Source of the DNA: an uncultured Pseudomonadota bacterium
GTDB lineage: Bacteria; Myxococcota_A; UBA796; CAJQPC01
Reading direction: 5' to 3'
Length of the DNA stretch: 64,000 bases
Assembly (NCBI GenBank): GCA_913060515.1
Contig: CAJXRZ010000019.1
Location: 19,857-83,856 of the forward strand
The notes below the pieces were generated by a model. The model saw only the letters and a list, made by a program, of their open reading frames with translations. It had not been told where the DNA came from and made no database searches. The translations under genes were made by a program, and so were the position numbers. Shown here one piece after another: positions 948-44,666 of this stretch (position 1 is the first letter of the stretch; every line of letters begins with the position of its first letter).

Positions 948-1574
948 TCACACCACATCGGCTAGGTTTAGGCGTCGACCGAGCTTTCTTGCCAGCTCAT
1001 GTCGGGCCCGGTGCAGCCGGGACTTTACTGTTCCGCGGGGAAGGTCCAGCAGCTCGCTGATCTCCTCGTAGGACAAATCCTCGATGTCCCGCAGCACGAT
1101 GATCTGACGCTGTTCATCATCCAGCTGATCCAGGGCTTCCTGGAGCAAGGTCCGTGCCTCGCGCTGGTGCACCGAGGCGTCGGTGCCAGGTCCTCTCTCG
1201 TCTGCGAGCTGTCGTTTGGGTGCGTCGTCCTCCTGTTGAATGCCGTCGATTGACTCGTGGCGGCCGTGGGCGCGTCGGTGTCTGTAGGTCTGGCGGTTCT
1301 TGCAGTGGTTGATCGCAACCCGGTAGATCCAGGTGCTCAGCTGCGCGTCTCCGCGGAACCCGGGCAGCGCTCGGAACAGAGCCAGGAACACGTCCTGGGC
1401 CACCTCTTCTGCGATCTCGCGGTCGCCCTTGAGCCACCGCATGCACACGCTGAAGACGCGGTTCTGATAGCGCCGCACCAACTCCGAATATGCTTTCCGG
1501 TCACCTTCCTTGAAGCGCTGCACCAACTCCTCATCCGTCGGTCGATGGACCATGGCAAAGAGAAGGGCAATCAT
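948..1574 (-). CDS. ECF RNA polymerase sigma-70 factor (RpoE-like)
   Basis: Region 2 (AYSELVRRYQNRVF, EEVAQDVFL, FRGDAQLSTWIYRVAINHC) and region 4 (LSYEEISELLDLPRGTVKSRLHRAR). Confidence 0.95.
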   Translation of the reverse strand: MIALLFAMVHRPTDEELVQRFKEGDRKAYSELVRRYQNRVFSVCMRWLKGDREIAEEVAQDVFLALFRALPGFRGDAQLSTWIYRVAINHCKNRQTYRHRRAHGRHESIDGIQQEDDAPKRQLADERGPGTDASVHQREARTLLQEALDQLDDEQRQIIVLRDIEDLSYEEISELLDLPRGTVKSRLHRARHELARKLGRRLNLADVV

Positions 1575-1601
1575 GGGTGGGCGCGAGGCCTCCGATCAAG
1601 A

Positions 1602-1629
1602 CAGACCACAAGGCGGGTCTGGGGGTTCC
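1602..1629 (-). promoter_or_regulatory. Putative ECF (sigmaE-type) autoregulatory promoter GGAACCC-N16-GTCTG
   Basis: Minus strand reads GGAACCC, 16 nt, GTCTG, ending 28 bp upstream of the sigma ATG; matches sigmaE-type -35/-10 spacing. Confidence 0.6.
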
Positions 1630-1661
1630 GAGAAAGTGGAGCTTAACACCCCCCACAACGC

Positions 1662-1689
1662 AAAAGGGCCTGCCCGCAGGCAGACCCTT
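1662..1689 (-). terminator. Intrinsic terminator-like hairpin after pentapeptide gene
   Basis: Minus strand AAGGGTCTGCC-TGCG-GGCAGGCCCTT-TT, 11-bp stem with a short U tract. Confidence 0.55.
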
Positions 1690-1709
1690 CCGATCATCAC
1701 ACGGTGGGA

Positions 1710-2156
1710 CTACTCGAAGTCGAGCTCGTCCTGGGGCAGGCGGATGGCCTCGCCGGTGCGGATGCTGGACTCAATCTGGTCCAGAGACTCCCGTGGGTTC
1801 GGGAAGATGGTCTTCTTGATGCGGGCACCGCGGAAGCGGCAGCCGTCGATGTTGGCGCAGTCCAAGTCGGCGAAGTCCAAGACGGCCTCGTCCAGGACGG
1901 CGCCCTGAAGGTTGGCGTGCCACATGGAGGCACCCTCGAGACGGGCACCCTTGAAGGTGCAGCCGCTCAGGTCCGCGTCGGCGAGCTTGGTGAAGCTCAG
2001 GTCGCGGCCGTCGAAGTTCAGGCCAGTCAGGTCCGCACCACGGAGGTCTGCCTCTACCAGAGAGCGGCCCTTGCGGAGGGCGTCCATGACCTGCTTACGG
2101 GTCATACTGGTAGGCGCGAGATCGTCTTCGCGGCGTCTTGCTCGGGCGCTTCTCAT
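1710..2156 (-). CDS. Pentapeptide repeat protein
   Basis: Tandem A(D/N)LxxA-type repeats (ADLRGADLTG, ADADLSGC, ANLQGAVLDEA); start set to ATG 2156 because the longer ORF overlaps the upstream gene. Confidence 0.9.
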   Translation of the reverse strand: MRSARARRREDDLAPTSMTRKQVMDALRKGRSLVEADLRGADLTGLNFDGRDLSFTKLADADLSGCTFKGARLEGASMWHANLQGAVLDEAVLDFADLDCANIDGCRFRGARIKKTIFPNPRESLDQIESSIRTGEAIRLPQDELDFE

Positions 2157-2230
2157 TGTCGGCTCCGTGGATTCAGCGTTCAGCGTGCTGCAGCTCAGCT
2201 CAAACAAAACCAAGGGTGCGGCTGACGATT

Positions 2231-3211
2231 TCAGACATCGGCCGCGCTTGGACCGATCCGGCGTAACAGGGATTGCACAACGGGTGCCACAAGGTCTCTG
2301 TCTGGAGTGAAGCTCTGAGCCAAGTGCAAGCCCCCAGGATTCAGGGTGTTGACCTCGACCACCTTGTCGCCGATCACGTCGATGCCGGCCAACCAAACCC
2401 CAGCCTTGAGCAGGTGGGGGTTCAGGGCCTTGCACAAGGCCTGATCCTCGTCGCTTAGTACGATAGGGTGCGGCTTTGCGCCTTGCTTGAGGTTGTGGCG
2501 AAACTCGCCAGGCGCCCGCTCGCGGAGGTAGCCGCCGAGCAATTCACCATCCAGCCAGACCAAGCGCTTCTCGCCGTGATCGGCCTCCGGAAGGTAGGCC
2601 TGAATCACCGCATATCGGTCGCCAACTTTTTGTACTTCGTCAAGAGCTCGGTCCAAGTCTTGGTGGCGCCGATGGGACACTCGGTGGATGTTTTTCCCTC
2701 CGCTGGCACGCGCAGGCTTGACGACGACCCCCTCTGGATACTCCATGGCGAAGGCATGCGCGGTGCCCCTTGCGCGGGTGACAAGGGTCGGCGGTTTTGG
2801 CACATCAGGGAGGCTGGCCAGCCAACCCTTGTGTGAGGTCATCAGCAGCGCTTCGGGGGGGTTGAGCACCGGCACCCCTGCAGACTGGGCCCGCAGGCAC
2901 CAGGTCAGCACGGCGTTGTCCATGGGGTTGATGCGAATCAGCATCAGGTCCAAGGAGGAGAGGGCCACAAAGCAACGGCGTGCGCGACGGGTCTGCAGCA
3001 GCGTGCAGACCTCGGCTCGGGACCAGCCCCTGTTGCGGGGGTCGAGGGCGTAGGCGCGTGCGACCAGCGCTCCCTTGGCATCGACCTCGAAGTCCCAGGG
3101 CTCGATCAGACGAACCCCCACACCCGAGGCCAGCAAGCCCACGATGATGTGGGCCGTGGTCCAGGTGACCTCGATGTTCGAGGCGCGGGTGATGGCGATG
3201 CCGATTCGCAA
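2231..3211 (-). CDS. gshB: Glutathione synthetase-like ATP-grasp ligase
   Basis: VVKP..ASGG, IQAYLPEADHGEKRL, EFRHNLKQG, GIDVIG..VVEVNTLNPGG match GshB ATP-grasp motifs. Confidence 0.75.
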   Translation of the reverse strand: MRIGIAITRASNIEVTWTTAHIIVGLLASGVGVRLIEPWDFEVDAKGALVARAYALDPRNRGWSRAEVCTLLQTRRARRCFVALSSLDLMLIRINPMDNAVLTWCLRAQSAGVPVLNPPEALLMTSHKGWLASLPDVPKPPTLVTRARGTAHAFAMEYPEGVVVKPARASGGKNIHRVSHRRHQDLDRALDEVQKVGDRYAVIQAYLPEADHGEKRLVWLDGELLGGYLRERAPGEFRHNLKQGAKPHPIVLSDEDQALCKALNPHLLKAGVWLAGIDVIGDKVVEVNTLNPGGLHLAQSFTPDRDLVAPVVQSLLRRIGPSAADV

Positions 3212-3294
3212 GGCTTTGCGCCTAACCCAAATACGGGACGACCGAATCCGGGGCGACCCGAATCTGCGGCGACCCGGTGCTACCCTTGGAGTCT

Positions 3295-4779
3295 ATGAAG
3301 TCACTCCTTGGCCGCATTCGCCTGCTCGTCCGCTCACGCAGCCCACTGATCGCCTTGATCACCTGGGAGGAGGAGCGCTTGGAGCGTCACGTCGGCCGAA
3401 TGGCACGGGACGAGGAGCTGGCCGTCTATTGCTGGCGGCAGACCACAGGTCTCACGGTGAGCGGGACCCCAATTCCCGAGACGCAGGGTCTCTATGAGGC
3501 GCTACAGCACATCGCTGTGAGTCTCCCAGAGTCCGCCGTCTTCCTGCTCTTCGACGCTCAGGAGGAGCTAAAGAAGTCCAAGGTGGTTCGCGCCTTGCGT
3601 GACGTGGAACCTGTGTTGGGCGCGCGGACCCAAGCCTTGGTCTTTGTCTGCCCCACCCTGAGCGTGCCCCGGGAGTTGGAGAAGGACCTGATGGTCATGG
3701 ACGTGCCCCTGCCCGATCGCGGCGAGGTTTCACGTCTGCTGCGGGTCATGCTGCGTCAACAGACGCTGGAGCTGGACCCTGTGCGTTTCGAGCGCTTCGT
3801 GCAGTCCAGCCTGGGCCTGACCGAGAAGGAGATCAAGCGCAGCTATGCCCGCATCCTCCTGGCGGGCCAGGGCTTCGACGACACTGCGCTCTTGGAGATG
3901 GGCCGTGCCAAGCGCCAGGCGATCCGGCGCTCCCGCCACCTGGAGTTCTTTGAACAGGTCGAGGACATGAGCGGGGTGGGCGGCCTCTCCCAGCTCAAAG
4001 AGTGGCTCGATCGGCGGGGCAAGGCCTTTGGGCAGGACGCTCGGGACTTTGGGCTGCCGGAGCCCAAGGGGGTCTTTCTCCTGGGGGTCCAAGGTTGTGG
4101 CAAGTCCCTGACGGCCAAGGCCGTGGCCGGCAGCTTCCAGATCCCGCTGCTTCGGCTGGACGTGAGCGCGCTCTTTCAAGGAGGCGGGCCCGTCGAAGAG
4201 TCGCTTCGGGACACCATCCGAATTGCAGAGTCCATCGCGCCAGCGGTGCTCTGGATCGACGAGCTGGAGAAGGGATTCTCAGGAGGGACCGGTGGCGCTG
4301 CCTTTGGTGCTTTCCTGACCTGGCTGCAGGAGAAGACGGCCCCCGTCTTTGTGGTGGCGACCGCCAACGAGGTCAGAGGACTGCCTCCGGAGCTCCTGCG
4401 AAAGGGACGGTTTGACGAGATCTTTTTCGTAGATTTGCCGAGCGTGCACGAGCGCCTGAGCATCTTGGAGATTCACCTGCGCCGCCGGCAGCGCAACCCC
4501 GAGGACTTTGACCTGTACCAAGCCGCTGAGGAGACGGAGAAGTACTCCGGCGCTGAGCTGGAGCAGGTCATCATCGAGGCGATGTTCAACGCGTTCGCCG
4601 AAGGGCGCGAGCTGAGCAACCGCGACTTGACCCGGGTGATCCGGGACACGGTGCCCCTTGCGGTCACCATGGATGACCGACTCAAGGAGCTGCGGGAGTG
4701 GGCGGGACCCCGCACACGACCCGCCTCTCAGGATCGTCGCCGCATCGACTACTTCGCAGACTTTCGGGAGGTTGAGTGA
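3295..4779 (+). CDS. AAA+ ATPase, Ycf46-like
   Basis: Walker A GVQGCGKS, Walker [36 protein letters not shown]; N-terminal [16 protein letters not shown]; ATG 3295 with GGAG RBS. Confidence 0.88.
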
Positions 4780-5798: not shown

Positions 5799-6647
5799 GT
5801 GAAGAGCGAGCGCACCCTGCGTGAGGAGATGATTCGCTTCTCCCACCTCTGCTATGAGCGGCACCTGTTGGTGGCGATGGACGGCAACCTGTCCTGCGTG
5901 CTGCCCAACGGTGACATCCTCTGCACCCAGGCCGGTTGCCACAAGGGGCTGCTCACCGACGAGCACCTGGTGGTCATCGATCGGCAGGGCAAGAAGCTGC
6001 GCGGCCGCGGCAACCCGACCTCTGAGATGGCCATGCACTTGGCCTGCTACCAGGAGCGCCCGGACTGCAAGGCCATCGTGCATGCCCATCCACCGCTGGC
6101 CATCGCCTTCACCATCGCGGACCAGTCCCTGGCCCAGTGTGTGCTCCCCGAAGTGGTCCTGACTCTGGGGACGGTGCCCACGGTGGCCTACGAGACCACC
6201 GGCACCAAGGGCTTGGCAGATGCCTTGCGGCCCTATGTACGCAACCACGACGCGGTGTTGATGGACCGACACGGCGCGGTGACCTTGGGGACCTCGCTCT
6301 TGGACGCCTTCTGCAAGCTGGAGACCCTAGAGCACACGGCCAAGATCACGGCCACAGCGCGCTCTCTGGGGGGGATCAAGACCCTCCCCCCCGACGAGGC
6401 CGTCGCCCTTCGCTCCATGGGCCTGAAGCGCTATGGCGGCCCACCCAGCGCCGTGGCCAAGGCGGACTCGCCCGGCGCGGATCTGCCCCAGGCGTGTTTG
6501 ATCTGTGATGGCTGCAGTGACCCGAGTCACATGGGCCTGGCCGCCCCAACGGGGGTCAGCGCCGTCCGCGTGAAGGGCCCTGGCTTGGACCAAGTGCGCA
6601 AGGTCGTGATGGAAGAGGTGCTCGCGGCCTTGAAGGGGGAGGCATGA
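5799..6647 (+). CDS. Class II aldolase/adducin family protein with C-terminal extension
   Basis: DGNLS, PTSEMAMHLACY, AIVHAHPP, LMDRHGAVTLG metal-binding motifs. Confidence 0.9.
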   Translation: MKSERTLREEMIRFSHLCYERHLLVAMDGNLSCVLPNGDILCTQAGCHKGLLTDEHLVVIDRQGKKLRGRGNPTSEMAMHLACYQERPDCKAIVHAHPPLAIAFTIADQSLAQCVLPEVVLTLGTVPTVAYETTGTKGLADALRPYVRNHDAVLMDRHGAVTLGTSLLDAFCKLETLEHTAKITATARSLGGIKTLPPDEAVALRSMGLKRYGGPPSAVAKADSPGADLPQACLICDGCSDPSHMGLAAPTGVSAVRVKGPGLDQVRKVVMEEVLAALKGEA

Positions 6648-7060
6648 TTCTAGCTCTGCTGACCGCATGCGCGGGCCTGACGGTCAATGACGTGACCACC
6701 GGGGAGTCCGAGGCCTACCCCGAGCTCAAGTCCATGTACTTCCACGAGGCGCCCCAAGCGGTGTTCTCCAGGGCCGAGACGGTGGCCTTGACCATGCCGG
6801 GCTGGCAGAACTGCAGCACCCCGGAGCCCTTTGTGCTGGCCTGCGAGGCGGTCACACCCAAGATGGGCTTTGTGGATGACGTCACCATCTGGGCTGTTCC
6901 TGCCGGCCCGGGCATGACGCAGCTCAAGATGCGAAGTGCTAGCCGCAAGGGCAAAGGCGACTTGGGAGCCAACGCCAAGCGCATTCGCGCCTACCAGGAG
7001 GCCCTGATCGCCTACAAGCCCGCGGCCCCCGCGGACGTGATTCCAGAGCAAGCCCAGTAG
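6644..7060 (+). CDS. Lipoprotein, DUF1499-like
   Basis: MILALLTAC lipobox; TPKMGFVDDVTI, MRSASRKGKGDLGANAKRIRAY. Confidence 0.8.
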   Translation: MILALLTACAGLTVNDVTTGESEAYPELKSMYFHEAPQAVFSRAETVALTMPGWQNCSTPEPFVLACEAVTPKMGFVDDVTIWAVPAGPGMTQLKMRSASRKGKGDLGANAKRIRAYQEALIAYKPAAPADVIPEQAQ

Positions 7061-7110
7061 GCAAGCTCAGTAGCCAAGCCCAGTAGGCGAGCCCAATAAG
7101 CAAGCTCAGA
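7048..7110. repeat. 13-bp tandem repeat, about 4.8 copies (GCAAGCYCAGTAG)
   Basis: gcaagcccagtag/gcaagctcagtag/ccaagcccagtag/gcgagcccaataa/gcaagctcaga between convergent genes. Confidence 0.85.
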
Positions 7111-7115
7111 GGGTG

Positions 7116-7859
7116 CTACTGCGGCAGGTCGCGGCTGATACGCGTCATCACAAGCTCGCCTTCGACCGCAGCAAATCCGGCCAGGTCGCCGTCAAAGCTA
7201 GCGCTCAGCTCGCCGTCTTCGGAGACTTGCCCGTCCAAGGCCAGTGGCACCTCAAAGCCAAAGAGGTCCAGGGCGATGTCGCCTTCGAGGTCTCCGGCGT
7301 CGTTCTCAGCACCGATGAGGTACTCCCCGTCGATGTCGATGCCTTGGATACTCAGGAAGCAGTTTGCGGAGCCATCAACCACCTCGCCTGTGGCGTCGAT
7401 GGTCAGGGTCGCGGCGCCCGAGCAGGCCGTGGAGAGTTGATCCGTGATCAGGTCCACCACCACGTTCCCGGTGTAGATGCCGGCATAGGCGCTCTGCACG
7501 AGCACGCCGCCGACAGTGTAGGAGACGCGGTCTCCGTTGGGCAGCAGGGCCTTGGCCTTCAGATCGTGAACGCCGATGGGGAGGGTGTCCTCGAACTCTG
7601 AACCGGTGGGGTTCCAGTCGCTGGCCACGCTGCTCTTCCAGGTGATCTCGTCGAAGTCGAGGACCTCTCCTTCGGCGTTCTCGAGGTGGGCCTTGAAGGT
7701 GGTCCCATCTTCGAGGGACACAAAGCTGGCGGACACCGGTGAGGTGATGACGAGCTCGGCTTGGCTCCAGTCAACCTCGACCTCTTCGATCTCTTCCGCT
7801 GTCTCGCTCTCGAGCACAAGGTAGTCGTTGCCACAAGCGAGTAGGGCGAGGATGAGCAT
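7116..7859 (-). CDS. Acidic lipoprotein of unknown function
   Basis: MLILALLAC lipobox, GGAGA RBS, beta-rich mature part, coding-like codon usage. Confidence 0.8.
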   Translation of the reverse strand: MLILALLACGNDYLVLESETAEEIEEVEVDWSQAELVITSPVSASFVSLEDGTTFKAHLENAEGEVLDFDEITWKSSVASDWNPTGSEFEDTLPIGVHDLKAKALLPNGDRVSYTVGGVLVQSAYAGIYTGNVVVDLITDQLSTACSGAATLTIDATGEVVDGSANCFLSIQGIDIDGEYLIGAENDAGDLEGDIALDLFGFEVPLALDGQVSEDGELSASFDGDLAGFAAVEGELVMTRISRDLPQ

Positions 7860-7899
7860 AGGGTCTCCGTGGCGCGTAGAAGGGCCGGGGCCATTGTAG

Positions 7900-9324
7900 T
7901 CAGTCTAGTGGGGCCTTGGCGAGCACTCGGGCCATCTCTTGAAGCGGCAGCGGACCTTGGGCCAGGGCGAGTGATGGCACCGGGCCGCTGGACTCCCGGT
8001 TGCTCTGAACCAGTGCCAAGTCCGCGGGGGCCCAGAGGGGCGGCGGCCATTGCTCCAGGACATGCAGGGTCTTGCAGCGAAGTGTGTCCGCGACCTCTGC
8101 GCTGCGATGAGGACCGCAGTGCTGCACGGCGATTCGGGCCGCGTGGAGCAGCTCGCCGGAGTGCATGCGCGGAGCCGGCAGCTCGGCGGGCAGACGCAGG
8201 CGCACCTGTACGCCTTGTGGGCCGGCCTCTGCTTGCAGCTCACCCCGCAGTCGGGTCACCAGCTCCCGCCCGAAGGCCAAGCCGAGCTGGGTGCGGGCCA
8301 ACTCCACGCTGTCCTCGTCTGGACCAACAGGGGCGGAGTCGTGCAGGTGGAGCTCCACCCAGGGCTCCTGCAGAGCGCATCGAATGGTCAGTTTGCGTTC
8401 CAGAGACCGGACCGGGCGCTTGAGGAAGCCGGCCAGGAGACTGGAGAGCAGGCTGGCCAGCCGGGCGGGGCTGGCGTGAACCGGAGGGGCGCGCTCGATC
8501 TCCACCTCTACATGAAGGATCTCCAGGTCCTTTCGGGCCAAGCCCAGTACCCGTTGCAGGAGGCGGCGGAGGTCCAAATCCCGCTCGGCCTGGTCGGTTG
8601 GGCCGAAGGACTTCAGATCGTTGACCAGGTTGTTGATCCGGGCCATGCCCTCTTGGCATTCGTTGATCAGCTCGTTGAGCTCGTCCAGTCCCTGGGGCCA
8701 GTTGGCCTGGCGCTTGTATGCCTGGAGTTGAGCCGGGTTGCCGTGCAGCAGGGCCAGATCGACGCCGTAGGTCAGCAGAGGCTGCAGGTCCTGGATGCAG
8801 GCGCGGGTCTCCTCCAGGTTGGCCATCACGAAGGTCGCGGGGTTGAGGATCTCGTGGGCCAGGCCCCAGGACAAGCGACCGATCAGCTCAAGCCTCTCCT
8901 GCTCCAAGGCTTGGGCGTGACTGAGCGCCAACAGGCCAGGGGCGATGCGGTTCTCATTGGGATTCGTTTGCGTTGGATGCGAATCCGCGGACGGTGACGC
9001 CTCAGATTTGGCCTCTGCAAACTGAGCCTGAGCCGCCAGACAGGCAGGCCAAGCCAACGCCGTTGGCACCACGTCCACGGCGCCTGCGCGCATGCAGGAG
9101 ACCGCTTGGGCCACGGTGAGGCGCTCTCCGCAGACGACAACGGGCAGGGTACTGGCGGCCAAGAGCTGGGGGAGCTCGGGTGCGCTGTGGTGAACCAAGA
9201 CACAGTCTGCGTGGGGCAGAGCGGCCAGCAACTCACCCAGGGAGTCGCTGCGACTGAGTGAACCCTGGCCCGACCATCTCGCTGGGGCCACGCGCGGTGC
9301 ACAGAGCTCAATCAGGTGCATCAC
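7900..9324 (-). CDS. Degenerate hybrid kinase (pseudo-receiver + HisKA + degenerate ATPase domain)
   Basis: H-box GLAHEILNP intact; N-terminal receiver-like AVSCMRAGAVDVV; N/G boxes degenerate. Confidence 0.7.
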   Translation of the reverse strand: MMHLIELCAPRVAPARWSGQGSLSRSDSLGELLAALPHADCVLVHHSAPELPQLLAASTLPVVVCGERLTVAQAVSCMRAGAVDVVPTALAWPACLAAQAQFAEAKSEASPSADSHPTQTNPNENRIAPGLLALSHAQALEQERLELIGRLSWGLAHEILNPATFVMANLEETRACIQDLQPLLTYGVDLALLHGNPAQLQAYKRQANWPQGLDELNELINECQEGMARINNLVNDLKSFGPTDQAERDLDLRRLLQRVLGLARKDLEILHVEVEIERAPPVHASPARLASLLSSLLAGFLKRPVRSLERKLTIRCALQEPWVELHLHDSAPVGPDEDSVELARTQLGLAFGRELVTRLRGELQAEAGPQGVQVRLRLPAELPAPRMHSGELLHAARIAVQHCGPHRSAEVADTLRCKTLHVLEQWPPPLWAPADLALVQSNRESSGPVPSLALAQGPLPLQEMARVLAKAPLD

Positions 9325-9376
9325 CGCCTCCGTCGGCAGCGATGTTATCAGCCAGGGGCAGCATTCGGAGCGTGAG

Positions 9377-38835: not shown

Positions 38836-39912
38836 CTACTTCTTCTTCTCGATGGGGAAGTAGCAGCGGATGCTCTCGGTGTAGCCGTTGTCGCTGGAGT
38901 TGCCCCAGCTCTCGCCGTAGAGCGTGACCCGGTCCTGGCTGGTGTCGCAGGCGTAATAGACCTCGAACTGGGTGCTCCCGGTGATCTGCAGGCAGAAGGA
39001 CTCGTGGTCGGTGTAGCTGGAGTTCCGGGTGCTCCAGAGAGGGCCGCACTCGATTCCGTTGGGGAAGTACAGGCCGTCCACCTGGGTGTTGGTGCATTCG
39101 GAGTAGGTGCTCGTGTTGGTCACCGAGTCGCAGGTCACGGTCTTGCCCAGAACGGTCTGACTCTCGCTGAAGACCGGCTGCTCAGGGTCTACTGCATCGC
39201 ATTGGCCATCGCTGTTCCAGTCGGGCCCGTCGTTGCTGGGGTCGTAGATGCCCGAGCTGCAGTCCTCGCAGGTGTCTGCGTCGGTGTCGCTGCAGACGTA
39301 GGGGTCCTCGGGCGCGGAGTCGTCCACGTCCAGGGAGCCGTCGTTGTCGTCGTCCTCGTCTCCGGGGTCGCACAGGCCGTCGGCGTCAAAGTCCGGTCCG
39401 TCGTTCTCGGTGTCCGGCAAGCCCTTGCTGCAGTCATCGCAGGTGTCGCCGTCCAGGTCCTCGCAGAGGCTGGGGTCCAGGGGCGCGATGTCTTCTGCGT
39501 CAGGCACCGTGTCGTTGTCATCGTCGGGGTCACCGGCGTCGCAGAGGCCATCGCTGTCCGTGTCCGTGCCGTCGTTGGCCGCATCCAGGCTGCCGCTGCT
39601 GCAGTCATCGCAGGTGTCTGAGTCGCTGTCTCCGCAGATCCCTGCGTTTGTGGGCTCGGGGTCCTCGGCGTCGCTTACGCCGTCGTTGTCATCGTCCTCG
39701 TCCACATCGTCGCAGTCGCCGTCCGCGTCTGCGTCGCCGCTGGCATCGTCTCCATCGCAGAGGTCCATCGAATCGCACACGCCGTCCTCGTCCAGGTCAG
39801 CGGAGTCGTCCCCTTCACAGATGTCGACGTCGTCGCAGGCGCCGTCCAGGTCGGCATCCTCGCAGGCGCAGCCGGTGGTGAAGAGAAGGGACAGGGAAAG
39901 CAGAAGGGACAT
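38836..39912 (-). CDS. Secreted/lipoprotein with thrombospondin type-3-like Ca-binding repeats
   Basis: Repeated DxDxDGxCD.xD.DDDND motifs; start ATG 39912 (MSLLLSLSLLFTTGCAC); Cys-containing C-terminal domain. Confidence 0.8.
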   Translation of the reverse strand: MSLLLSLSLLFTTGCACEDADLDGACDDVDICEGDDSADLDEDGVCDSMDLCDGDDASGDADADGDCDDVDEDDDNDGVSDAEDPEPTNAGICGDSDSDTCDDCSSGSLDAANDGTDTDSDGLCDAGDPDDDNDTVPDAEDIAPLDPSLCEDLDGDTCDDCSKGLPDTENDGPDFDADGLCDPGDEDDDNDGSLDVDDSAPEDPYVCSDTDADTCEDCSSGIYDPSNDGPDWNSDGQCDAVDPEQPVFSESQTVLGKTVTCDSVTNTSTYSECTNTQVDGLYFPNGIECGPLWSTRNSSYTDHESFCLQITGSTQFEVYYACDTSQDRVTLYGESWGNSSDNGYTESIRCYFPIEKKK

Positions 39913-39989
39913 GTGGGGACTCCGTTTCGAGTCTCCAACATAGCATTCCTCGCTCCGAGTGTGACCCTTCACGTTTCCCACACAGACGG

Positions 39990-40403
39990 TCAGTCTGCGT
40001 ACTCCATCAGGGGGCCACGCAGCTCTCCAAGCAGCTCCTCGGCCTGGGCCTGTGCCTCCTCCCACGATGGGTAGAGCGCCTCCATCTTGCGCTTCCCGTT
40101 GGCGGTGAGGTGCAGCAGCTGCCCTCTGCCCTTGGTCTTGGTGCGCACCAGGCCGTCCTGCTGCAGTCGCCCTAGGTTTCTGGACAGAGTGCTCTTCTCA
40201 AGGCTCAGCGGCTCCACCAAATCCCGGGCTTGAATGCCAGGATTCGCGGCGATGGCCGCCAGCACATTGATGCGCGCAGCGGTCATGCCGTGTTGGCGTG
40301 CGTGGGTGTCGTAGAGCCGGGTGACCTCGCGGTTGAGGCGCTGGACACGTAGGCCCAAGCAGTCACGGAGGATGTGGCCGGAGATGGAGGGGATCGTGGT
40401 CAT
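39990..40403 (-). CDS. MarR family transcriptional regulator
   Basis: DCLGLRVQRLNREVTRLYD, LEKSTLSRNLGRL..DGLV, LTANGKR. Confidence 0.9.
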   Translation of the reverse strand: MTTIPSISGHILRDCLGLRVQRLNREVTRLYDTHARQHGMTAARINVLAAIAANPGIQARDLVEPLSLEKSTLSRNLGRLQQDGLVRTKTKGRGQLLHLTANGKRKMEALYPSWEEAQAQAEELLGELRGPLMEYAD

Positions 40404-40459: not shown

Positions 40460-41632
40460 TCAGGGCTTGTACTCGCTGCTCCCGCTCGCCTCCTGGAGCG
40501 TGGAGCCGTAGACCGTGGCGTAGTCCCCGCTGGCGGTGTTGTCGTAGCCCCCCAGGATGGCCGCGTAGTTCCCGCTGGTCTCGTTGGAGTGGCCCCCCAG
40601 AATCGCCGTGTAGGACCCGGTGGCTTGGTTGTAGATGCCGCCGCTGACGCTGCTGTAGGTGCCCCGGGCGGTGTTGGTGAGGCCGCCGACCACGCTGGTG
40701 TAGAGCCCGCGGGCCTCGTTGTCGTAGCCACCGCTGACCACGCTCTTCTCGCCGCTGGCCACGTTGTTGCTCCCCATGGCTACGGCGTAGTCGCCGCTCA
40801 CCTCGTTGGTGTAGCCTGCGAGTAGACCGCCAAAGCCCGAGTAGCTGTGGAAGGGCCCGATGATGAGGTTGTGGGCGCCGGTCTTGTCCGTGGCGGTGTC
40901 GGCCTCGTCGTAGCCGATGACGAAGTTGCCCAGCCCAGTACTGCTGTCTGCGGTGGCCCCAAATCCAGACTGAACGAAGACGTTGGCGCCGCTGAAGATG
41001 ACTTGGTGGGTGCTGGTGTCCGCGCTCAGGTAGGTCAACACATCCTCGGCCTGGGCCGAGACCAGCTCCAGTGCGTCTGCCCGAGTGTCCAAATCCGAGA
41101 GCGCGCTCTGGGCTGCGGAGAGTTGGGTGTTCAGGCTCACCAGGTCGCTCTCCGTGGTGGCCAACAGGCTGCTGTTCGCGGAGATGGAGTCGGCCTGCTC
41201 GGCGATGGTCAGGTCCAGCTCCCCTTGGCGGGTGCTGAGGGCGATGAGGCCCTCGGCCTGCTCCAGCGCCCAAGTGTCCAAGGTGTTTAGGGTCTGGGTG
41301 TTCGAGGCCAGTGTGGTCTCCGCGCTCACCACGCGGCTCTCCACCGCAAGCAGTCGCTCTGCTTGGCTCTCCAGGAGCGCTTGCTGTTCCAGGAGCTGGG
41401 CTTCCACGTTCTCAGCTTCGGTGGTGCGGAGGGTGTCGACTTCCGCCTGCAGGGAGCCCACCTGGGCCAGGAGCGCTTGGTGCTCGCTGCCCAGGATCTG
41501 CAAGGCTTTGTCTTGCGAGGCCAGTGTGTCCTCCAGGGCAGCCAGCCGGACATCGGTCTCGCTCTGGACCTCGCTCTGGGCGCCGCAGGCCGTCAAGAAG
41601 GACAAGGAAATCAAGAGGTACTGAAAACGCAT
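40460..41632 (-). CDS. Lipoprotein with long coiled coil and beta-helix (YadA-head-like) repeats
   Basis: FLTAC lipobox from ATG 41632; heptad-rich stalk; repeats GGxxNxAxGxYSxVxGG. Confidence 0.75.
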   Translation of the reverse strand: MRFQYLLISLSFLTACGAQSEVQSETDVRLAALEDTLASQDKALQILGSEHQALLAQVGSLQAEVDTLRTTEAENVEAQLLEQQALLESQAERLLAVESRVVSAETTLASNTQTLNTLDTWALEQAEGLIALSTRQGELDLTIAEQADSISANSSLLATTESDLVSLNTQLSAAQSALSDLDTRADALELVSAQAEDVLTYLSADTSTHQVIFSGANVFVQSGFGATADSSTGLGNFVIGYDEADTATDKTGAHNLIIGPFHSYSGFGGLLAGYTNEVSGDYAVAMGSNNVASGEKSVVSGGYDNEARGLYTSVVGGLTNTARGTYSSVSGGIYNQATGSYTAILGGHSNETSGNYAAILGGYDNTASGDYATVYGSTLQEASGSSEYKP

Positions 41633-41691
41633 GAACAAACTCCGGAGTCGCTTGATCAGGAGAACGTCCCTTGCCGCCACTTAGGGCAAAA

Positions 41692-42699
41692 TCATTCCTC
41701 GCCGCGCTCCTGGGGCTCGCCGGACTGCTCCTCCAGCCACTGCCACACCTCGTCCACGCCCACGGGCGCTGGGGCCAAGTAGGGGTCGAAGCTGGCCGGA
41801 ATCACCGGCAAGCCAGGTGCCCGCTCACGGACGTGCGCCAGCATGCGCGGCAGCTCGCCTTCGCGCAGCAGGTCCACCTTGTTCAGGGCCACCAACGTAG
41901 GCCGCTTTCGCGCTTGCACCGTGTCCAGCAGCGCGCGGTCTGGGGCTTGCAAGCCACCCTCGGCGTTGAGCACCACCAGGTAGAGGTCCGCGTGGTCCAG
42001 GTACATCTGGGTCTCTTCGCTCAGGCCTTCGTCCACGTCGCCGTGTCCGGGGGTGTTGAGCACAAAGAGGCGCTCGGAGAGCTTGTGTACGCCCGCTTCC
42101 CGGGTGGCGCCGGCCACCGGATCGATGTTTCCGGTCTCGATGCCAAACAGGGCCCGAAGCGCGCTGTCCTTGCCTGAGGAGGGCGGGCCGACGATGGCCA
42201 CGGTCTTGCGCCCTCTGAGGGCCTCGCGCAGCTTGGCCAGGGCCATCAGCACGGCCGGCAGCACCTTCTCTTGCTCCCGCTCGTCCCGATTGCGCAGCCA
42301 AATCAGGGGCATCAGGAAGAAGAAGATGCGCAGCAGGTAGTTGCGCTTGAACTCGTAGCGCCACTCGGGCGGAATCAGCCCCTTGGAGGGGCCATAAGGC
42401 GCCATCAGAGCGTAGTCGCCGGCGGCCTCTGGGCTCAAGGCTTTCTGGTCGACCAGAGCGCCGATCAGCCTGGCCTCGAGCACGTCGAGCTCTCCAACGG
42501 CTCCGTAGCCCTTTTTCTCCAAGAGCCGGCGCAGAGTGGTCGGCCAGGCAGGGCAGTGAACCCCTCCAATGCGCCGTATCGCAGACTCCAAGGTGGCCGC
42601 GCGCTCCCCTCGGCGTCCCTCTGCGGGCAGGCCGAACACCGCTTCGAGGGGCTCCAGCTCTTCGGGACGGGCCCGATCCAGCAGGCGTCGCAGGCTCAC
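41692..42699 (-). CDS. TRAFAC-type GTPase, C-terminal G domain, atypical motifs
   Basis: G1 GPPSSGKD, G2 PVAGAT, G3 NTPG, G4 NKVD; N-terminal helical domain with a hydrophobic segment. Confidence 0.85.
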   Translation of the reverse strand: MSLRRLLDRARPEELEPLEAVFGLPAEGRRGERAATLESAIRRIGGVHCPAWPTTLRRLLEKKGYGAVGELDVLEARLIGALVDQKALSPEAAGDYALMAPYGPSKGLIPPEWRYEFKRNYLLRIFFFLMPLIWLRNRDEREQEKVLPAVLMALAKLREALRGRKTVAIVGPPSSGKDSALRALFGIETGNIDPVAGATREAGVHKLSERLFVLNTPGHGDVDEGLSEETQMYLDHADLYLVVLNAEGGLQAPDRALLDTVQARKRPTLVALNKVDLLREGELPRMLAHVRERAPGLPVIPASFDPYLAPAPVGVDEVWQWLEEQSGEPQERGEE

Positions 42700-43754
42700 T
42701 CAGAGGACCCGCTGCTCGAAGAGTCGGTGATCAAGGGCGCCTTGGCCGAGGCCACCGTGTCGAAGATCTGCTTGAGATCGCCGATGTCCAGCTTCTGGTC
42801 CGACTGGATGTAGCGGATTGCCGCCTCTCCGATGCCGTAGGTTGCACCCGCTGCGACGGCGCCGGCCAATGCGGCGGTGGCCACCTGTGCGACTTGAGCG
42901 CCTGGGATCCAACCCGCGGTCTTGAGCACGGCCACGCCCTTCTTGATGAAGCCCTTGGAGGAGCCGGCGAGCAGCTCGCCGACCATCCAGAGGATGACGT
43001 CCTTGTCCAGCTTCTTGCTGTGCACCTTGGAGATGGCCTCGACCAGTTGGACCTGGATGAAGGTCACCGCGGTGATGTCAGCGCCAGGGATGGGCACCGC
43101 GCCTGCCAGGGCGGCCTTGCGCGCGGCCTTCTTGATCAGCGGCTGACAGGCCAGACGCTTGTTCTGCAGGTGCCGGGCAAAGAGCAGGGCGTTGCCCTTC
43201 TCAGCGAGCACGCCATCGATCCAGGAGACCACCTCTTCCAGGCCAATGGGGTCGATGCCCAGGGCTGGATGGGGGTCAAAGCTTGTGGCGACCACCTGAT
43301 CGGAGGAGAGTCCGAGCTGCTCGATGGTGCGGCGTACAAAGTCGTCGCGCTGAAGGGGGCGAATCAGGTCGATCTTGTTCAGGCAGACCAGAGTGGGCAG
43401 GCCACCGGCGTTGCGCTCTTGCACCGACTTGAGGTCGTCCAGGATGGCCTTGGTCGCGCCACCTTCGGCGTTGACGATGAACAGGGCCAGGTCCAGGCGG
43501 TCCAGGACCTTGCGGGCCACGGAGTCCACCTCGGCGCGCACGTCCTGGAAGCCCGGGGTGTTGACCACAACGAAGCGGCCCTCGCCATCGAGCTGGGCCA
43601 GGCGCAGGGTCTCTGTAGACCCTGGCACCGGGTCGATCTCACCAAAGTCCACGCCAAAGAGGGCGCGAATGGCGGCGTCTTTGCCAGCCGAGGCTGGGCC
43701 CACAACCGCGAGGGCGAGGCGGGAGTCGAGGGCTTCGTTGAGATCGCTGGACAT
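42696..43754 (-). CDS. TRAFAC-type GTPase with DUF697/YcjF-like C-terminal domain, atypical motifs
   Basis: G1 GPASAGKD, G2 PVPGST, G3 NTPG, G4 NKID; C-terminal AALAGAVPIPGADITAV..IQVQLV. Confidence 0.85.
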   Translation of the reverse strand: MSSDLNEALDSRLALAVVGPASAGKDAAIRALFGVDFGEIDPVPGSTETLRLAQLDGEGRFVVVNTPGFQDVRAEVDSVARKVLDRLDLALFIVNAEGGATKAILDDLKSVQERNAGGLPTLVCLNKIDLIRPLQRDDFVRRTIEQLGLSSDQVVATSFDPHPALGIDPIGLEEVVSWIDGVLAEKGNALLFARHLQNKRLACQPLIKKAARKAALAGAVPIPGADITAVTFIQVQLVEAISKVHSKKLDKDVILWMVGELLAGSSKGFIKKGVAVLKTAGWIPGAQVAQVATAALAGAVAAGATYGIGEAAIRYIQSDQKLDIGDLKQIFDTVASAKAPLITDSSSSGSSE

Positions 43755-43763
43755 GGTCTACCT

Positions 43764-44597
43764 TTACTTGAGCTGCAGCATCTTGGACTTGTCGAGGTCC
43801 AGAGGCAGAACTCCAAAGGGAGTATCCACGTTCAGGTCGGCGTCCAAACGCACCTTGATTTCGTCCCGGTCCTTGATGGCGCCCACGATTGCGGTGCCAG
43901 CCTCGAGCAGGTTCAGGTCGATGGGGATGGTCACTACGCCGGTCTCGTTGGGCTCGATGGTGGCGAACTGGGCGATGGTGCCGCCGCCAACCTTCGTGCC
44001 CTTCAGGTACATGTCGTACTTGAAGTCTTGAAAGTTCAGGATCGAGGCCTGCTTGTGGGTCACGTTCAGGTCCAAGCCCAGGCTGGCCTTGTTCTGAAGC
44101 ACGGCCAAGTCGGTCACGCGCAGTCCCTGGAAGCTGATGTCGGGCTTTTGCAGCATGGGGAACTCGCCCGACTCATCGTAGGGCAGCTCAATGACGCCGA
44201 TGGGGGTGTTGAAGCCGATGTTGCCTTTCAGGCCAAAGGGCACGTTGTCGGCGCCCTTGATGTCGCCGGCCAGCTTGATCAGGTTGGCGAACTGCACGTT
44301 GACAGGGATGCGCAGCTCGGTGTCAGCCGCAGCGTCCAGGGACATGCCGTCTGGCTTTTGGCCGGTGAAGAAGTTCACGCCCGCCAGGTCCAGATCGTAG
44401 GTCAGGTTGGCCAGCGTCACTGCGATGGGGTTGGGGTTGCGCACGTTGAATACGAACTCGGTGTCGGCACCTTGGAAGTTCACATCCTGTACGTCCAAGT
44501 TCTTGAACCGCACGGTGGGCTTGTACTGATCCAGGTCCAAGTCTTGGAGGACCTTCGGGCAGCCGGTGAACATCAGGATGGGCATCAAAGAGAACAT
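43764..44597 (-). CDS. Tandem LEA_2/WHy domain lipoprotein
   Basis: MFTGC lipobox from ATG 44597 (GGAG RBS); NVRNPNPIAVTLANLTYDLDL; second similar domain. Confidence 0.85.
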   Translation of the reverse strand: MFSLMPILMFTGCPKVLQDLDLDQYKPTVRFKNLDVQDVNFQGADTEFVFNVRNPNPIAVTLANLTYDLDLAGVNFFTGQKPDGMSLDAAADTELRIPVNVQFANLIKLAGDIKGADNVPFGLKGNIGFNTPIGVIELPYDESGEFPMLQKPDISFQGLRVTDLAVLQNKASLGLDLNVTHKQASILNFQDFKYDMYLKGTKVGGGTIAQFATIEPNETGVVTIPIDLNLLEAGTAIVGAIKDRDEIKVRLDADLNVDTPFGVLPLDLDKSKMLQLK

Positions 44598-44666
44598 CGG
44601 GACTCCAGTTTGCGGCAGTGTATTGCCTTGCGCGGGAGTTGGACGGCGGCAAAGGGCCAAACTCAC

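Follow-up and report, generated by a model that had tools for sequence, protein, structure and literature searches.

A clade of Era-like GTPases, fixed as a two-gene module, whose Walker A/Walker B dyad is putatively inverted

Two overlapping GTPase genes with an altered magnesium site

The stretch of DNA analysed here (the window, 64,000 nucleotides) is part of contig CAJXRZ010000019.1 of an uncultured Pseudomonadota bacterium, placed by GTDB in the Myxococcota_A. At positions 41692 to 43754, on the minus strand, it carries two GTPase genes, referred to as A and B, in which two residues of the Mg2+ site are exchanged: the Ser/Thr following the P-loop Lys (K+1, at the end of the G1 or Walker A motif) is Asp, and the Asp that opens the G3 or Walker B (WB) motif is Asn. 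An earlier note on this DNA had reported GK-D in G1 and N-T-P-G in G3 of both genes, a 4-bp overlap of the coupled genes, and an intact G2 Thr and G4 NKxD. All of these were seen again when the codons were re-read in the DNA. The features of the pair are listed below, with the basis of each in brackets.

42696..43754, minus strand: gene A, 352 amino acids (aa), GTPase with C-terminal DUF697 helical bundle (six-frame list of open reading frames (ORFs), Pfam, AlphaFold 2 (AF2) model)
41692..42699, minus strand: gene B, 335 aa, putative shortened JukA/YaaW-like N-domain and GTPase (six-frame ORF list, Pfam, AF2)
42696..42699, minus strand: GTGA, stop codon of A (TGA) overlapping the GTG start of B by 4 bp (sequence read)
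43197..43727, minus strand: G domain of A, residues about 10-186 (Pfam MMR_HSR1 at residues 15-127, AF2)
43677..43700, minus strand: G1/P-loop of A, GPASAGKD, Asp26 replacing Ser/Thr (GAC at 43677-43679; codons)
43551..43562, minus strand: G3/Walker B of A, N65-T-P-G, Asn replacing Asp (AAC at 43560-43562; codons)
42762..43172, minus strand: DUF697 domain of A, residues 195-331 (Pfam PF05128, AF2)
42220..42699, minus strand: helical N-domain of B, residues 1-160, including the hydrophobic stretch LLRIFFFLMPLIWL (family hidden Markov model (HMM))
41722..42210, minus strand: G domain of B, residues 164-326 (Pfam, Foldseek)
42166..42189, minus strand: G1/P-loop of B, GPPSSGKD, Asp178 (GAC at 42166-42168; codons)
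42046..42057, minus strand: G3 of B, N215-T-P-G with Asn (AAC at 42055-42057; codons)

The GTGA overlap strongly indicates that the two genes are translationally coupled. The DNA of A encodes G19, G24, K25 (AAA), D26 (GAC), T47 (ACA), N65 (AAC) and T66-P67-G68, and its G4 motif is N126-K127-I-D129 (NKID). The corresponding residues of B are G171, G176, K177 (AAG), D178 (GAC), T199 (ACC), N215 (AAC), T216-P217-G218 and N273-K274-V-D276 (NKVD). Compared to the GxxxxGK[S/T] motif, both proteins have Asp at the last position, the remainder of G1 being intact. Neither protein matches hhhhDxxG, since Asn occupies the position of Asp; the strand and the Gly are kept (VVVNTPG and FVLNTPG).

Gene A was recognised by the Pfam profiles MMR_HSR1 (34.6 bits, cut-off 21.9) and DUF697 (PF05128; 43.3 bits, E 4.1e-11, cut-off 27.7), in agreement with the previous description of A as a G domain with a DUF697/YcjF-like tail. 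Its AF2 model (predicted local distance difference test score (pLDDT) 87.6, predicted TM-score (pTM) 0.86) has a G domain reaching to about residue 186 and then a compact five-helix bundle, and the helices at 199-338 correspond to the DUF697 region. In overall shape A gave low-TM Foldseek matches to EHD2, Irga6, mitofusin, BDLP and IniA. Kinship between the DUF697 tail and the JukA-like N-domain, which would turn A and B into circularly permuted versions of one protein, was considered and rejected (hhalign probability 0.25%). The genome of the window also contains a DUF697-only ORF of 212 aa (L006, G000:C43:13117-13476), which lacks a G domain and is 28% identical to the tail of A.

Gene B matched MMR_HSR1 with 43.1 bits (cut-off 21.9). 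In its AF2 model (pLDDT 76.4) the helical N-domain is followed by a disordered stretch, then by a long helix and the G domain, and the best Foldseek matches were Era 3iev, 7c1o and EngB, with root-mean-square deviations of 3.2-4.8 Å over about 180 columns. Both proteins have the Ras-like alpha/beta G-domain fold, as judged by the AF2 models and Foldseek.

The Era/EngA(Der)/EngB/MnmE group (MMR_HSR1) contains the closest relatives of the pair in sequence and fold (profile matches to EngA 1mky, E 1e-11, and Era 3iev), and the closest sequence relatives of the A G domain in the PDB are EngA/Der, Era and MnmE. NCBIfam assigned the pair to no specific family; similarity to HydF, Era, Der and MnmE stayed below threshold. 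A and B share with this group the order of G1 to G5, a hydrophobic residue after G3 and the NKxD motif. They differ from it by G1 ending in Asp instead of Ser/Thr and G3 beginning with Asn instead of Asp, and they have no KH or other RNA-binding domain but are fused to DUF697 or a JukA-like domain.

Coupling of the two positions and history of the swap

Co-variation of K+1 and the first G3 position, a check proposed in the earlier note, was followed in several sets of homologues. In a word-indexed search of 5.8 billion proteins, A had more than 240 relatives and B fewer. All listed homologues that could be aligned across both motifs (126/126) have GKD together with N-[AT]-P-G. When 1.84 billion cluster representatives were searched exhaustively with phmmer, 870 matched, and the best 150 of the 870 were aligned to the G domain of A. 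Among these 150, the K+1/G3 state was S/T + D in 76, D + N in 50 and D + T in 2, and D + D and S/T + N were both at 0. The others were fragmentary, apart from two degenerate sequences and P0147, a representative with an apparent frameshift (scored D + R). An alignment of 128 rows held 63 D + N, 4 D + T and 60 S/T + D sequences, and about 130 diverse relatives included neither D + D nor S/T + N. When the G domains of 122 sequences were aligned, K+1 and the first residue of G3 were the only columns that perfectly separated swapped from canonical sequences (0.99 bit each; next-best column 0.70 bit). On the strength of these alignments we conclude that the two substitutions are strictly coupled and define an undescribed GTPase subfamily, as the earlier note had supposed. 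The swap in A and B goes far beyond chance, since both residues are invariant across homologues. As to prior description of a family with these motifs, which the earlier note had considered, full-text literature searches found none, nor any description of a GKD P-loop GTPase; a search for DUF697 together with GTPase returned incidental mentions only.

Within the A family (86 homologues) the G, S, G, K and D of G1 are invariant, as are N65, P67 and G68. In the B family (19 members) the same holds for G171, P173, S174, G176, K177 and D178 and for N215, T216, P217 and G218. Both families also keep the G1 Gly/Lys, the G2 Thr, the G3 Pro-Gly, NKxD and a G5-like FDP without exception, and the residue after G3 is F, H, L or M among the homologues. 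Compared to a same-genus relative, the ratio of non-synonymous to synonymous substitution rates (dN/dS) was 0.26 for A and 0.30 for B, and both genes are under purifying selection. Motif invariance and these ratios together characterise A and B as maintained genes and not as decaying copies.

At K-3 both families have an invariant Ser (S22 in A, S174 in B) and not the Asn found in the K+-dependent members of the Era group. The GxxNxGKS motif of K+-dependent GTPases is thus missing from A and B, but is present in more distant canonical relatives. A shift in register that would make a Ser at K+2 the Mg ligand was rejected, K+2 being Ala in A of the window and in most B members.

The conservation of the motifs bears on the view that A and B are pseudo-GTPases, in which the altered Mg site would have abolished nucleotide binding and the G domains would serve purely as structural dimerisation modules. 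Both canonical Mg-site residues are indeed gone, and P0254, a relative with B architecture (JukA-like N-domain, E 1e-33), has GKE in G1 and a degenerate G3 (TMVTADSPDA) and may have decayed into a pseudo-GTPase within the family. Known pseudo-GTPases, however, usually lose G4 and G1. In A and B the G1 Lys, G4 and G5 show no degeneration, all being invariant apart from the two swapped positions. The P-loop Gly/Lys, G2 Thr, G3 P-G, NKxD and FDP are retained at only 35-50% identity, and the 67 swapped sequences of the alignment have kept exactly D with N or T. With G1 Lys, G2, G4 and G5 intact, we regard a purely structural role as very improbable.

Canonical GTPase-DUF697 proteins with tandem partners (P0140, L030/L037, L039, L099-L102) share the architecture and the two-gene arrangement with the window pair, and differ from it by GK[ST] and DxPG. 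The cyanobacterial slr1306-type proteins belong to this canonical group, and E. coli YcjF consists of DUF697 only. In L039 the gene for a JukA-like protein with a G domain (GKS/DTPG) overlaps a downstream A-like GTPase gene (GKS/DLPG). The closest canonical relative of A, P0140 (GKT; 38% identity over the full length, E 9e-61), is likewise followed by a GTPase gene, and its G3 reads DAPGFGD compared to NAPGFGD in the A family. Canonical pairs are carried by Woeseiaceae and other Gammaproteobacteria. The two architectures are thus paired in canonical form as well, which makes the pairing older than the swap.

A careful G-domain tree was built with both trait columns removed. The swapped groups in this tree were Myxococcota A together with a Spirochaetales-type lineage, Myxococcota B together with a third swapped group (C-type, described below), and two single sequences; they are located in a weakly supported group that also contains canonical lineages. 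The K+1 and G3 traits change on the same 4 branches. The best tree requires these 4 changes, while the well-supported branches force only 1-2 and provide one independent contrast only. Forcing all 67 swapped rows into one clade was not rejected (approximately unbiased (AU) test, p = 0.31), and the swap may have arisen once and then reached both architectures by duplication or domain exchange.

This modifies the view, put forward in the earlier note, that the same change in two paralogues reflects compensation. The strict coupling stands, as no mixed states occur. The independence of the two cases does not: since the AU test allows the swapped G domain to have originated just once, the match between A and B does not count as separate evidence for compensation. 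Coupling is instead supported by the lack of intermediates over deep divergence and by Thr, a neutral and hydrogen-bonding residue, as the sole alternative in G3. The unrejected monophyly and the single well-supported contrast would also agree with mere shared ancestry of one odd G domain, in which a neutral or near-neutral double change was fixed once and is functionally meaningless. Neutrality leaves unexplained why neither position drifts back or elsewhere down to about 30% identity, why G3 accepts no residue other than Thr in place of Asn, and why there are zero intermediates although both architectures also occur in canonical form. We consider this explanation improbable.

In the Spirochaetales-type loci L040:901-3465 and L094:3737-6272 (Spirochaetales MAG, metagenome-assembled genome), A has GKD and T-A-P-G and its partner has GSMSAGKD and N-A-P-G; G4 of the L040 partner is HKVD instead of NKxD. 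In the tree, the G domains of A (D + T) and of its own B partner (D + N) from this lineage are sisters, which suggests duplication or gene conversion between the partners. MglA-type GTPases, which are bacterial and Ras-like, have TxxG for DxxG in G3 and set a precedent for a neutral hydroxyl residue where the Walker B Asp would stand; T-A-P-G of the D + T sub-lineage (P0143, L094) is similar to this. MglA is not known to depart from a normal GK[ST] P-loop and offers no counterpart to the reciprocal change.

Conservation of the pair, its surroundings and the JukA-like domain

It had also been proposed to check whether the pair is conserved as a neighbourhood. A GTPase gene with GKD and NTPG directly follows A in a 9.4-Mb genome and in two further MAGs, and the remaining neighbours differ. 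Strong matches to A (E < 1e-97) were present in 24 of 301 sampled genomes of the window's phylum, all within the Myxococcota order of the window. B is located immediately downstream of A in 21 of these 24 genomes, the exceptions being one contig end and one genus. In this genus, the only case of unlinked A and B that was seen, B is on a different contig and away from contig ends (G212:C19/C85, G237:C6/C4; loci L019, L023, L038). A scan of one genome per species added 51 loci, from records titled mostly Myxococcota or 'Deltaproteobacteria' MAGs. MAGs are the source of all A-B loci recovered, and the pair is not known from a cultured host. The pair states were D+N/D+N in 44 of them and D+N/D+T in 2, with one probable indel, and no pair combined a swapped with a canonical partner. 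A and B were neighbours in about 44 of the 51 species-representative loci.

Several pair-bearing contigs (L051, L063, L066, L067, L080, L089 and others) come from MAGs titled Klebsiella pneumoniae, Bifidobacterium breve, Enterobacterales or Alphaproteobacteria; for contigs with a Myxococcota-type pair, such titles look like taxonomic mislabelling of public records. B is frameshifted after G3 in one (L002:7070-8281) of two MAGs that are nearly identical. It is intact in the sister L003, and the frameshift is probably an assembly error.

Clustering of the flanking ORFs of 52 loci revealed that A and B alone are universal, the next real family being present in at most 11 loci. This rules out the apparent operon of the window (a/b-hydrolase, unknown gene, LEA_2, A, B, coiled-coil/beta-roll protein) as a conserved unit. 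As nothing besides A and B is conserved in the flanks, the gene string of the window is local to the genus, and the LEA_2 neighbour is found beside the pair elsewhere only in a same-genus genome. The neighbouring genes in the window, all on the minus strand, encode a lipoprotein with two LEA_2 domains (43764-44666), a lipoprotein-like protein whose long coiled coil is accompanied by C-terminal beta-roll/YadA-head-like repeats (40460-41680), and an Asp-rich protein with many D-x-D-x-D-G-x-C-D repeats that by eye are thrombospondin type 3-like (38836-40065). Of these three, the same-genus genome shares only the LEA_2 gene beside its pair. According to Pfam, the 88 immediate neighbours at the 51 loci are response regulators, GrpE, dehydrogenases and others, a mixture of housekeeping and regulatory functions.

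A likeness to paired bacterial dynamin-like proteins (BDLP, DynA, LeoA/LeoBC, C. jejuni DLP1/2, IniA), which the earlier note had drawn, holds for the tandem arrangement of the GTPase genes and for a helical bundle that comes after the G domain. The P-loop of dynamin, GQSAGKS, is resembled by the SxGK P-loops of A and B, and LeoA is weakly matched by both proteins (A: E 6.6e-5, PADLOC). The likeness does not extend to the Dynamin_N scores (23.8 and 20.9 bits, below the cut-off of 27) or to size (352 and 335 aa versus more than 550 aa); no stalk or paddle was identified, and Foldseek TM-scores reached just 0.3-0.43. With Dynamin_N below threshold, half the size and such TM-scores, the comparison is an analogy only.

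The N-domain of B had been described as loosely YaaW-like. The PADLOC model for JukA is matched by 13 of the 19 members of the B family (best E 2.5e-17). B of the window itself is not matched at E<=0.1, but an HMM built from the other B N-domains recognises it at E 1.2e-7, in two colinear segments. This profile evidence bears out the earlier description of the family, and the N-domain of the window B is probably a diverged and shortened JukA/YaaW-like domain.

The B N-domain HMM also recognises canonical GKS/DTPG proteins, e.g., P0276, and the third swapped group, C-type (about 420 aa, GDGSxGKD, N[YF]PGFND). The N-domain of C-type proteins matches PADLOC JukA with E 5e-43 and is 37-44% identical to plasmid proteins annotated DUF3944. 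All three C-type loci examined (L041:70-3694; L036 (G125:C126) 5883-9339; L096, from the cultured Paraburkholderia sediminicola LMG 24238, 1066-4579) have the same three-gene arrangement of a divergent sigma-54 activator, a 116-129 aa protein and the GTPase. The small protein has a Gly-zipper-like hydrophobic C-terminus, and its L041 copy has no Pfam or PADLOC match. The C-type GTPase adjoins DISARM drmA/drmB in L036 and is located near a tyrosine-recombinase-like ORF in L096. The layout resembles the Psp system, and C-type loci may represent a defence or stress module.

According to passages of the preprint on the Juk anti-jumbo-phage system, JukA is the renamed YaaW and acts as infection-site sensor of this system; fusions of JukA to a Ras-like GTPase are noted there without further study (Li et al., bioRxiv 10.1101/2022.09.17.508391), and a search of its main text turned up no mention of the G1/G3 change. 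A and B could accordingly be seen as a Juk-type anti-phage module, in which the JukA-like domain of B would sense phage entry at the membrane and the GTPases would act as effector or amplifier. The homology of the B and C-type N-domains to JukA (DUF3944 plus a Cbp3-like domain), the JukA-GTPase fusions listed in the preprint and the DISARM genes next to one C-type gene are in line with this. However, the Myxococcota pair is surrounded by heterogeneous housekeeping and regulatory genes, its partner gene encodes a DUF697 GTPase, and it is spread over one order instead of being scattered through the phylum. Few of the 88 neighbours match PADLOC families, each family once, and a defence-island context was rejected as unsupported by this PADLOC/Pfam scan. 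JukB was not found beside the JukA homologue when partner A was compared to PADLOC and the other window neighbours to Pfam only; A itself gave only LeoA (weak) and PDC-S29 in PADLOC. The JukA family has also been related to the Cbp3 assembly chaperone, which means that the domain is no sure sign of defence. A Juk-type role is possible, if unlikely, and has no contextual support for the Myxococcota pair.

The metal site and its possible function

A survey of 3136 Mg-NTP (nucleoside triphosphate) catalytic sites (Kozlova et al. 2022, PMC9599734) states, in the passages dealing with the Walker motifs, that the K+1 Ser/Thr is a ligand of Mg2+ and shares a hydrogen bond with the Walker B Asp in every class of P-loop NTPase, both residues being 'strictly conserved'. 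The survey builds a general catalytic mechanism for P-loop NTPases on this dyad. In the same passages, the exceptions given are Gly at K+1 in nucleoside monophosphate kinases and Glu at Walker B, and no others; replacement of either residue of the dyad abolishes activity, and Walker B Asp-to-Asn mutants keep nucleotide binding and lose stimulated hydrolysis. This universal hydrogen bond makes the K+1 and G3 positions direct contact partners. D/N or D/T leaves one carboxylate beside the metal, D/D would place two there and S/N none, which fits the observed states.

We propose that A and B are a co-translated and evolutionarily fixed Era/EngA-like GTPase pair with a hydrophobic residue at the position of Ras Gln61. 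In this pair the Mg-ligating K+1 Ser/Thr would have been replaced by Asp, and the Walker B/G3 Asp, which in canonical proteins hydrogen-bonds the K+1 Ser/Thr and a Mg-bound water, by Asn (Thr in one sub-lineage). Binding of guanine nucleotide and Mg2+ and conformational switching are probably retained, in view of the invariance of Lys, G2 Thr, G3 Gly, NKxD and the G5-like FDP. The K+1 Asp may ligate the metal directly, or may assume a second-shell and proton-acceptor role, and metal affinity and hydrolysis kinetics would then be expected to differ from those of canonical relatives. The two G domains would most likely form a nucleotide-dependent heterodimer, to which B may contribute a JukA/YaaW-like targeting or sensing domain and A the DUF697 bundle, which is probably membrane-associated. 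That A and B constitute a functional nucleotide-dependent switch with a rewired metal site is a view for which the sequence data leave the scales about level. We hold more tentatively that they would be active GTPases with the dyad inverted to Asp(K+1)-Asn(WB), which would bring a carboxylate to the Walker A side, either bound to Mg or close to it.

Several points weigh against an active switch of this kind. Either single change abolishes activity or weakens Mg binding in canonical enzymes, and the pair could be hydrolysis-dead. P0254 with its GKE and degenerate G3 indicates that lineages of the family can decay towards pseudo-GTPases. The AlphaFold models of A and B are ligand-free, and the case for the putative heterodimer consists of the adjacency of the genes and their matched states. 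Matched states could also result from domain exchange between partners, as considered for the sister G domains of the Spirochaetales type. The DUF697 tail, made up of Ala/Gly-rich helices, is weakly hydrophobic (maximum 19-residue Kyte-Doolittle mean 1.41), and at this modest hydrophobicity it is at best a candidate for membrane insertion.

The main alternative is a GTP-binding, hydrolysis-poor switch. GTP and Mg2+ would be bound and stimulated hydrolysis essentially lost because the Walker B Asp is Asn, and the proteins would act as long-lived nucleotide-dependent scaffolds or sensors that are reset by exchange or turnover and not by catalysis. The behaviour of the Walker B Asp-to-Asn mutants of many P-loop NTPases (passages of PMC9599734) is as this explanation expects, the nucleotide-binding motifs are all kept in both families, and the residue after G3 (F/H/L/M) is neither Gln nor another obvious catalytic residue. 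A hydrophobic residue at this position is, however, normal for active GTPases of the Era/EngA/dynamin type. Ala or Gly at K+1 would have been enough to kill catalysis, so that the presence of Asp in 67/67 suggests a positive role, and the gamma-phosphate-sensing G2 Thr and G3 Gly are conserved as in a cycling switch. We consider such a GTP-locked state rather unlikely.

Our data point to a clade of Era-like GTPases in which the dyad of Walker A and Walker B is inverted and which has become fixed as a module of two genes. The swapped clade is large, old and under purifying selection, and together with its canonical sisters of the same architecture as controls it represents a natural experiment. 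It could show whether one carboxylate near Mg2+ suffices wherever it is placed, whether the K+1 hydroxyl is needed as proton relay, and what becomes of metal affinity and hydrolysis rate. In addition, the family ties two widespread modules, DUF697/YcjF and JukA/YaaW (a phage-entry sensor), to GTPase switching. If the proteins are active with an inverted dyad, they would be the first natural exception of this kind to the proposed universal catalytic module of P-loop NTPases and would allow a direct test of the proton-relay role proposed for the dyad; a different metal preference would be possible. The always-shared state of the partners would then fit active sites that complete each other across the heterodimer interface.

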